Assembly: GCA_951406725.2 (NCBI GenBank)
Contig: OX597836.1
Location: 46,500,001-46,564,000, forward strand
Direction of reading: 5' to 3'
DNA: 64,000 bases
Origin: Octopus vulgaris
Lineage: Eukaryota
Made by a program: the position numbers and the translations under genes. This document shows, piece by piece, positions 5,901 to 8,900 of this stretch. Numbering within the stretch: the first letter of the stretch is position 1; each line of letters starts with the position of its first letter. The notes beneath the pieces are model-generated. The model was not told the origin of the DNA. It did no database searches and saw only the letters and a list, made by a program, of their open reading frames with translations.

Positions 5901-8900
5901 CTGTAACCACAACCATTCTTCTCTGAAATGAAATACAGTAGAGGTGAGTGGAAAGGAGTCATCATCATCGTCATCGTCATCACTATGGACATCATCATTA
6001 TAGAGATAGAAATTTCAATATTAAGTAGATCAAAATTGAATGTCTCATCTTGAACTCTGTGTGTGTGTGTGTGTGTGTGTGTGTGAATCTTTTATCTTTT
6101 ACTTGTTTCAGTCAGAAGACTGCAGCCATGCTGAGGCACCACCTTGAAGAATTCTAATCAAATGGATGGCCCCGCCACCCAATACTTGTTATTATTCTGT
6201 TAAGCCTGATACTTATTCAGTCAGTCTCTTTTGCTGCACTGGTAAGTTACAGGGCCGTAAACACACCAACACTGGTTGTCAAGTGATGAAGGGGTACAAG
6301 CACATACACAGACACACACACACAGATATATATATATATATATATATATATATATATATATACATATATACATGTATGTAATATAATTTTTTCTGAAACT
6401 TCAGATTTTTAAATATGCTGGACCACTGGTTTTAAATTGATATTAATCAAATTAATATTAAATTTTTACCCTTATATATATATATATATATATATATATA
6501 TATATATATATATATTGATGTTATTTTGCGGTTGAAGCTTTTGGCTGTTATTTCTAGTGGGTGAATGGCCTATTATGGCCGTTCCTTGATTGTGATGTTG
6601 AACTTAAAATGGTTTATGACTATTTAATTTTTTCCCACTAGGCCGCTGGTGGCAATAAGATTCTACAAAATTCTTTGCCACCCTATATTGATTAATTATG
6701 AATTTTCTGGTTAATTCCGTAATGGAATCGGCGGCTTATATTTATTTGCTGCCGATAAATTTGGCGCGAGTGCGATGATTTGAAAATTTTAGGTCAGATA
6801 TTGCCGAGGCAGGGATGAGAATGCCTTGAAAAATATCTGTTCCGACTTGGCTATTTCTTACTGATGAATCTCTATGGTAGATTGGCTTGATTTAATTTAA
6901 TCAGGTTAGTTTACCATTAAACAGTAGATGAAACGGTGCATCGTATAAGAAATTACAGGGTAAATGTTTTTTAATTTTCTCCTGGTTTACGGAATTGATG
7001 TTATTTTGCGGTTGAAGCTTTTGGCTGTTATTTCTAGTGGGTGAATGGCCTATTATGGCCGTTCCTTTATATATATATATATATATATATATATATATAT
7101 ATACAGGTGAGAAAGTTGGTTTGTGAAAGCACGTGTTGGATATAAAATTTTATAACATTTTCCTAACATAACGACTTAAATATATTCTTTAGACTTATAA
7201 CACAAGCCTTCTGTAGTTTTTTCACTCTTTTCTATTTTTATATATATATAAATATATCTGTGAGTATGTGTGTGTGTGTGTGTCTTTGTGTATGTGTTTG
7301 TCCACTGTCACCACTTGACAACCAATATATATATATTAATGTGAGACTAGAAGGATATATTATCCGGGTAGATACTGTGGTAAATCTAAGTTATGCTCCA
7401 GGTTATGGCTAACCACAATGATTAGTATTTAATGTTTATGACAACTAGAAGTTGTCACTGAAGCTGTAAATTCCTCTGATGAGTAATTCCATGTTTGCTT
7501 CTCTGGATGGTAATATTATTTGGAGTGTAATATTACCGATAATTATAATGACAGAGAATATGGAGATTGGTACATCCCCAGAATTTATTTCTATTTATTT
7601 TGCGATGACCTACGGCAGATTTTTATGGTTACGACAACATTGTAAAATAAAAGGAAATAAATTTTGAGGATATATCAGTCTCTATATTGTATATTGTTAT
7701 AATTGTTGCATACACACACACACACATGCTGGGCTTCTTTCAGTTTCTAATCTACCAAGTTCACTCACAAGGCTTTGGTTGACCCAAGCAGTAGAAGGCA
7801 CTCACCAAAGATTCCATGCAATGGAACTGAACCCAGAACCATGTGGTTGGGAAGCAAACTTCTTGTCACACAACCACACACACACACACACACACACACG
7901 CACACACGCACGCACGCACGCACGCACACACACACACGCACACGCATAATTTGGCAGGACAAAATTCTTACCTTGATACATTTGGACAGTCCCTGATTTT
8001 GACATGTGGTAAAATATTTGGTGCATTGTTTGGGGTGAAAACTTTGATTAGCTCCATGGAACTGACCAACTTCAAGTAGCCAAGGTATAAACCTCGTTGT
8101 GTTGGCACTGTACTAACGTCGTTGTAAAGAATCATATCCTGTAAGAGACAATATATAAAAAGAAACTGTAAAATAATGTTTCACATGCACACAGACATAT
8201 ATGTACAAGTACATACATACATTCTTACATATATATACATACACGTACGTGGAGACTCAAAACTTGACTGTGATCGACGTCACCATCTCTTGAGTTATCC
8301 AGCCATCAGAAAAACGCTTTTTCCGATGGCTGGATAACTGTAGAGATGGTGGCATCCAAAACTTGGAGTTTTATCTTGGCTACCGAATAATTGTCACATT
8401 TACAGATAAATTCCTCTATTTACATAATATCGAGGTCTCTTTCATTCTTTTGTTATCTTACTGTTTTTATCAATATATGTATATATATATATATATATTA
8501 TATATATATATATATATTATGTATATATACATACATATATATACATATATGCATATATATATATATACATATATATACATACATCTATATACATATATAT
8601 ACATATATGCATATATATTTATATATATATATGCATATATATATATGCATATATGTACATATATGCATATATATATATGCATATATATTTATATATATAT
8701 ATATATATATATGCAAGGACTTTCTAAAAGTTCATGCGAAGTTATGAAGATGAAGTAATGTGGTCAATAACACATTATATCATAGGTCATAGCTCCTGGT
8801 TTATCATGTTGTGTATCATTGAGAATTTTCTCTTATTTCTATCTGTTAACTGTTTCAACCCATTTATGAATACAACCAACCAAACAATACCGGCTGAGAA

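Follow-up and report, generated by a model that had tools for sequence, protein, structure and literature searches.

A dispersed family of non-coding hammerhead repeats in Octopus vulgaris whose copies end next to (TA)n tracts at either of two fixed 3' sites

Introduction

Tandem repeats that carry a type I hammerhead and are expressed as RNA circles have been described as non-LTR retrozymes (Cervera and de la Pena 2020, PMC7229834). Their mobilisation from RNA circles by Penelope-like elements is a proposal made both in that work and by Li, Clavereau and Pollet (2026, 10.64898/2026.07.22.740005), for whom animal retrozymes are non-autonomous Penelope sequences. In Poseidon, the Penelope element of the anole, two internal start sites are used, both target strands are cut and extended, and the enzyme is predicted to be a dimer (PMC11167929). 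In the sections of that study drawn on here, the start sites show no strand preference and no reads end at the cut. The tail of Penelope elements is often found on one end only, an observation made qualitatively in PMC8557442, where the origin of the one-sided tail and of the tandem and inverted insertions is stated to be unresolved.

Here we analyse a window of 64,000 nucleotides of the Octopus vulgaris genome (assembly GCA_951406725.2, contig OX597836.1, positions 46,500,001 to 46,564,000 of the forward strand), in which a hammerhead-bearing unit had been noticed from the letters. We found that it belongs to a dispersed non-coding hammerhead family, that it makes about 1.15 turns of the family unit, and that the 3' ends of the copies lie at two fixed sites next to (TA)n.

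Results

The copy in the window

The insertion occupies 6514..7067 on the forward strand and has a single arm of about 1.15 turns. Its first 74 nt (6514-6587) recur letter for letter at 6994-7067, i.e., at a period of 480, and it lies between two target microsatellites, (TA)21.5 at 6473-6515 on the left and (TA)18 at 7068-7103 on the right. It is non-coding, the overlapping frames being all of 82 aa or less even when read from stop to stop. The three extra hairpins listed in the original prediction (ggtggcaa/ttgccacc, atcggcggc/gctgccgat and cagatatt/aatatctg) are present in the computed fold of the 480-nt unit, which has a z-score of -5.64, none of the shuffles folding equally well. These observations agree with that prediction, and its central claim of a retrozyme-like copy left by about 1.15 turns of reverse transcription is backed by the other copies of the family, one of which (L004) is 97% identical to that of the window. 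The unit length needed amending: 480 nt is right for the window copy, which has small deletions, and the usual unit of the family is of about 491 nt. The identity of the repeats had also been read as a sign of recent insertion, but 74 identical bases are a weak sign of age when divergence within loci is 0.21% (190 single-copy differences in 90,558 copy-sites).

We number the unit from the first base 3' of the predicted hammerhead cut (+1). The window copy then begins at +50 and ends at about +123, some 9 nt short of a site, A, where many copies end. A hairpin followed by a TTGATT motif leads up to this site (6560..6596, with +132 at 6596), and another such pair leads up to a second site of this kind, B (6648..6699, with +237 at 6699), both on the forward strand. 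Given the exact repeat and the ends of the family, the downstream copy of the redundancy (6994..7067) would hold the start of reverse transcription and the upstream copy (6514..6587) would be the tail end of the second turn. Synthesis would have started near A, passed the cut 122 nt in, continued for about 430 nt, stopped at +50 of the next turn and been joined to (TA)n. The 74-nt redundancy is the overlap of one arm with its next turn, set by a chance stopping point. The copy has one hammerhead and is thus unable to release a monomer alone by the criterion of 10.64898/2026.07.22.740005.

Two other features were seen in the window. Opposite-strand frames at 9798-9981 have near-identical translations, which points to a palindrome, imperfect and some 180 nt long, that may be a small inverted-repeat element. 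A tandem repeat with a unit of 180 nt lies at 54870-55197, and this unit presumably resembles an octopus SINE.

A conserved hammerhead with a long stem II

A complete type I hammerhead lies at 6853..6953 on the forward strand, as originally predicted, and our own motif scanner returns the same site. Read directly from the sequence, stem I has 8 bp (6853-6860 / 6946-6953), the core consists of CUGAUGA (6861-6867) and GAAA (6930-6933), and the predicted cut at GUA falls after 6945. Stem II is closed by 6868-6871 and 6926-6929 and is lengthened by a long hairpin; stem III has the palindromic loop UGCA. The region 6845-6960 folds with a z-score of -6.31, which no shuffle equalled. Six nucleotides after 6871, in stem II, are missing from the window copy and kept in 36 of 36 other units. 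The copy has the core and stems I-III, and a hammerhead in each unit is a feature by which non-LTR retrozymes are recognised.

The Rfam search that had been suggested gave no match to Hammerhead_1 in the window unit. The sole hammerhead match, to Hammerhead_3, scored 13 bits (E 4.7) against a cut-off of 48.5. Rfam is probably blind to this hammerhead because of the long stem II. Its microRNA matches were rejected as (TA)n artefacts.

The core is conserved across the family, with 1 departure in 950 calls against 1,143 in 43,717 elsewhere in the unit, and polymorphic sites are 0 of 11 in the core against 67 of 480 elsewhere; these counts draw on 83-91 loci per position and include changes common to related loci, which are not independent events. 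All four bases occur at the free position 7, the triplet at the cut is GUA in some copies and GUC in others, and in 4 loci loop III has changed from TGCA to TATA, a double change that leaves it a palindrome. Two observations count against the explanation that we favour in the Discussion: Rfam recognises no hammerhead family here, and stem II is closed by an A-C pair in 17 of 85 loci.

A young and scattered family

A DNA search gave at least 166 matches with the best 40 of 1,319 candidates scored, the full-length ones being nearly all 94-98% identical. A 26-nt motif had 3,901 exact matches (0 for the control), and the junctions with (TA)n had 399 matches for the A end and 855 for the B end. The first 100 motif matches represent 34 loci; at this ratio the whole set would come from about 1,300. 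Because 8 of 20 B-end junctions in the same 70 Mb lack a match to the motif, the number could reach about 2,200, so that a family of 1,300-2,200 loci is plausible by extrapolation. The usual unit is low in G+C, which makes up 181 of its 491 majority bases. Arms exceed one unit in 80 of 230 cases and two units in 33 of 230, the longest running for 9.3 turns; such dispersed, head-to-tail copies ranging from monomer to multimer are another feature of retrozymes. The family is young, widely scattered and protein-free.

It had been cautioned that the locus might be single-copy or an assembly duplication, and more than 100 independent loci of a dispersed family speak otherwise. An exact repeat with microsatellites on either side could arise from assembly duplication or chance, yet the same phase and ends recur in all these loci and the stretch is found in the sequencing runs of 7 studies, leaving this explanation a negligible probability.

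Older relatives of the unit with 69-76% identity were seen at L226:1807-1942, L233:2443-2898, L244:5734-5901 and L248:681-1250, some of them ending at the phase of A or B. They appear to stem from a previous wave of this family and would be of use in a covariation analysis.

Two fixed 3' ends that occur as a pair

We sampled 34 loci taken in order of position, 6 further long loci, 60 loci anchored on A ends and 40 anchored on B ends, and parsed five complex loci by hand (L072, L110, L119, L121 and L151). Almost all arm 3' ends (170 of 174) lie within A (+124 to +140, mode +132) or B (+226 to +247, mode +237), which are 105 nt apart, and 167 of 174 adjoin (TA)4 or longer, while the 5' ends are variable. 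The copies had been expected to be free circular permutations of one unit; instead, variation is confined to their 5' ends, and the 3' ends lie at two fixed sites. Common endpoints had in turn been named as evidence against a retrozyme. The 3' ends have them and the 5' ends do not, and this combination points to target-primed insertion of the Penelope type, not to a refutation of the retrozyme reading. Two fixed 3' ends, 5' truncation, an inverted arm and a microsatellite target are traits of Penelope mobilisation. Retrozymes have target-site duplications of more than 4 bp where present, and these are unreadable here because the flanks are (TA)n.

Most insertions (24 of 35 in the positional sample) are V-shaped, i.e., they consist of two arms joined head to head. 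Such two-armed insertions have one A and one B as their outer ends in 23 of 24 positional, 50 of 53 A-anchored and 22 of 28 B-anchored loci. Pooled, this makes 95 of 105, with no AA and no BB; the remaining 10 have an end outside A or B and count against our favoured explanation. The hairpin and TTGATT motif that precede both A and B may be twin docking modules, and the stretch from A to B is a 105-nt 'tail' of the Penelope type. Two other origins of the V were considered and rejected: fold-back self-priming, given that in 24 of 71 loci the A arm exceeds the B arm in length, and classical twin priming on one linear RNA, given that 60 of 71 B arms extend beyond site A and do not have their 5' ends there.

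An excess of arm ends just after the predicted cut on the first pass

The 5' ends of arms fall at +1 to +40 in 47 of 178 cases on the first pass and in 8 of 116 on later passes, against a background of 102 in 1,734 per 40 nt (5.9%). The first-pass excess is significant (p = 1.5e-5), also for A arms and for B arms each, and no 5' end lies between -10 and 0. The test left out arms with an internal jump or with an end outside A and B, as well as arms of the B sample that were at the edge of the locus or below 78% identity. The restriction to the first pass leans on pooled data, in which the two arms of one locus are not independent, and the B-anchored sample alone counts against it, with 3 of 11 stops on the second pass versus 16 of 48 on the first. 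Such a stop pattern would arise if some templates were cut linear monomers and others had no stop at the site.

The stops bear on whether a covalent circle is needed at all. In a cut linear monomer the ends might be held by stem I and the reverse transcriptase might jump the nick at each turn. The type I topology read from the sequence sets the monomer ends side by side, and homogeneous arrays would be explained equally well by nick jumping as by a circle. Failed jumps should nevertheless leave excess stops on every pass, and later passes are at background; moreover, other animal retrozymes are mostly covalent circles (PMC7229834). We therefore regard nick jumping as quite improbable.

Each insertion is most likely written from one RNA

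The two arms of a locus have 8 mismatches at 1,532 polymorphic sites (61 loci), against 598 expected at random. In 19 of 71 loci their 5' ends are at most 15 nt apart in the same turn (permutation mean 2.7, maximum 9 in 10,000 permutations). With A ends near the cut removed, the 5' ends coincide in 11 of 51 loci (mean 1.1), and in the B-anchored sample they do so in 4 of 22. Arm lengths within a locus are correlated (rho 0.67), and 54 well-covered loci have 42 haplotypes.

The distribution of variants among turns is informative on the template. Across 43 two-armed loci, 14 private variants are fixed in all turns of both arms (14,110 sites; private meaning private within about 120 sampled loci), and 3 variants in 20,246 pairs are turn-matched across arms. 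The large excess of the former suggests that a monomer is usually expanded at insertion, whereas a linear multimer from a mixed array predicts the reverse. Variation within arrays is star-like, with 190 singletons versus 17 variants shared by subsets of turns, which argues against local amplification, for which nested sharing is predicted. The 17 subset-shared and the 3 turn-matched variants are not predicted by a pure monomer template and count against the favoured explanation. Each insertion was, from these variants, most likely written from one RNA, often a closed monomer, and the private variants would fit a covalent and a nicked circle alike.

In four loci (L072, L074, L078 and L092) variants are common to turns two or three apart in one arm, as may result from local duplication, assembly mixing or multimer circles. 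RNA editing was considered for the family and rejected: there is no A>G excess, with 9 A>G and 23 T>C among 202 singletons and 3 A>G and 8 T>C among 44 rare locus-fixed variants.

The same enzyme and the same paired priming could also make long arms from uncut linear multimeric transcripts of arrays already present in the genome, if only the hammerhead beside the bound protein is active and produces the first-pass stop. We consider this unlikely, even though it agrees with the turn-matched variants, with the second-pass stops of the B-anchored sample and with the anole Penelope element, whose hammerhead needs protein in order to cut and whose insertion proceeds mainly from uncut RNA (PMC11167929). 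It contains no step from monomer to multimer, yet there are as many haplotypes as given above, and private variants fixed across all turns are about 7 times more frequent per site than turn-matched ones.

No Penelope frame within the arms

The original prediction allowed that copies might extend into an open reading frame of a Penelope reverse transcriptase with GIY-YIG endonuclease, and no arm does so in the 130 locus records screened. The window has no Penelope ORF, and the Penelope fragments present in 12 of the 130 records are all outside the arms. These results bear on the reading of the copies as solo pseudo-LTRs of an autonomous Penelope element, later amplified in place by unequal crossing-over (a route suggested in 10.64898/2026.07.22.740005). 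The ends, the (TA)n target and the inverted arms are all Penelope traits, and the subset-shared variants, some of them periodic, suggest some local duplication. Against this, no arm runs on into the RT frame, array variation is star-like, and both inverted arms are multimeric, have one haplotype and end at fixed outer sites. The reading is largely refuted for most loci and seems very unlikely to account for the family.

We compared the unit with the 3' regions of 30 GIY-YIG loci (30 of 148 listed matches; 6,136 candidates) and found no similarity, nor did 9 of these regions that were also compared against shuffles show any. The strict hammerhead scanner found none in the 30 regions. One match to the unit, in the GIY-YIG locus L163, was discarded because it is a retrozyme fragment. 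A young autonomous Penelope-like family with many copies and an intact 781-aa RT and GIY-YIG frame was seen at L191-L210 (e.g., L201:4906-7248). Copies of this element likewise adjoin (TA)n, with 3' ends at either of two sites separated by about 39 nt. Two-armed copies were seen 3 times among 20 retrieved, and each of them pairs a long with a short end. Its CxxCxxC-type linker resembles the one described for the Neptune and Nematis clades (PMC8557442). Since neither this element nor the other screened loci have similarity to the unit, we leave the partner unnamed, a point that counts against the explanation favoured below.

At L020:2394-3059 we observed a truncated copy of this 781-aa element, 98% identical to it in protein sequence, which lies past a retrozyme A end and the adjoining (TA)n tract at a distance of about 320 nt. 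Minimal hammerhead-like motifs were noticed by eye near the 3' ends of other Penelope families, at about 3430-3500 of L139 and in the 3' region of L164.

Discussion

We think that the family is probably a non-LTR retrozyme copied in trans by a Penelope-like protein from a single RNA monomer, often closed and probably circular. Arrays would be transcribed and their hammerheads would cut out 491-nt monomers, some staying linear and others becoming closed. Published Penelope biochemistry and the flanks suggest that an RT/GIY-YIG protein, probably a dimer, would bind the structured region 130-240 nt after the cut and break both strands of a (TA)n tract. One target strand would then prime at A and the other at B on the same RNA, which would give rise to the observed pairing. 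On a cut linear monomer both copies would run off, leaving the short arms that end at +1 to +40, and on a closed monomer they would pass the cut and go up to 9 times round. Finally, the two cDNAs would be joined head to head into a V, or one would be lost and the other joined to the far (TA)n end, as in the window copy. The anole element counts against this explanation, as its hammerhead is protein-assisted and dispensable for insertion and its start sites show no strand preference (PMC11167929).

A more specific version, which we hold as a serious possibility rather than as the expected outcome, is that one circular RNA offers two similar modules, each a hairpin plus UUGAUU, to an asymmetric RT dimer, that one target strand is primed at each module, and that both enzymes then roll round the circle in tandem. 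If so, the one-ended Penelope tail would reflect a fixed offset between the subunits, and germ-line cleavage by the hammerhead would have left its record in the genome as the first-pass stop. More than 1,000 short young insertions give rules that can be counted (one A plus one B, one haplotype, a stop on the first pass only) and tested directly by an in vitro reaction. Work on gene writing would also have an interest in an enzyme able to write a small RNA circle into (TA)n tracts.

Comparison with known systems

The retrozyme kind and the proposed link to Penelope are already published, and a cephalopod family and the pairing rule are absent from the literature searched (outside subscription papers, Repbase and bioRxiv supplements), which holds no cephalopod retrozyme family and no count of paired ends. 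The words 'octopus' and 'cephalopod' have no occurrence in the main text of PMC7229834, and the work of Li, Clavereau and Pollet, in the sections drawn on here, sampled no mollusc.

By every feature that its sequence can test, the family appears to be a retrozyme, with a variant ribozyme and a long tail. Like the metazoan non-LTR retrozymes of PMC7229834, it has thousands of non-coding tandem units of low G+C, each with a type I hammerhead, and no LTR, PBS or PPT was seen. Its unit is of 491 nt, in contrast to RNAs of 170-400 nt, and its stem II is about 60 nt longer, which is probably why Rfam misses it. The cited parts of that paper give no description of the fixed paired ends, the inverted arms and the (TA)n targeting seen in the octopus family. 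The RNA circle is shown for the retrozymes of PMC7229834 and is predicted for the octopus family.

The families of 10.64898/2026.07.22.740005 (51-972 bp) are likewise tied to Penelope, through its pseudo-LTRs. The link was made there by co-occurrence and by pseudo-LTR homology, and here by the anatomy of the insertions: a homologous pseudo-LTR was found in that work and none for the octopus unit among the 30 GIY-YIG loci. Arrays are attributed there to local amplification, whereas those of the octopus look written at insertion.

Penelope-like elements with endonuclease have in common with the octopus family two internal start sites after the hammerhead cut, an A+T-rich target, 5' truncation, an inverted 5'-truncated arm and a tail that is often one-ended (PMC11167929, PMC8557442). 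The octopus family differs from them in having no ORF and a tail of 105 nt instead of 30-40 nt. It also bears a genomic trace of the hammerhead cut, which is lacking in the anole RNA data presented in PMC11167929. Unlike in the accounts of these elements, the strict pairing of one A with one B has been counted in the octopus family, and its arms make several turns in both directions.
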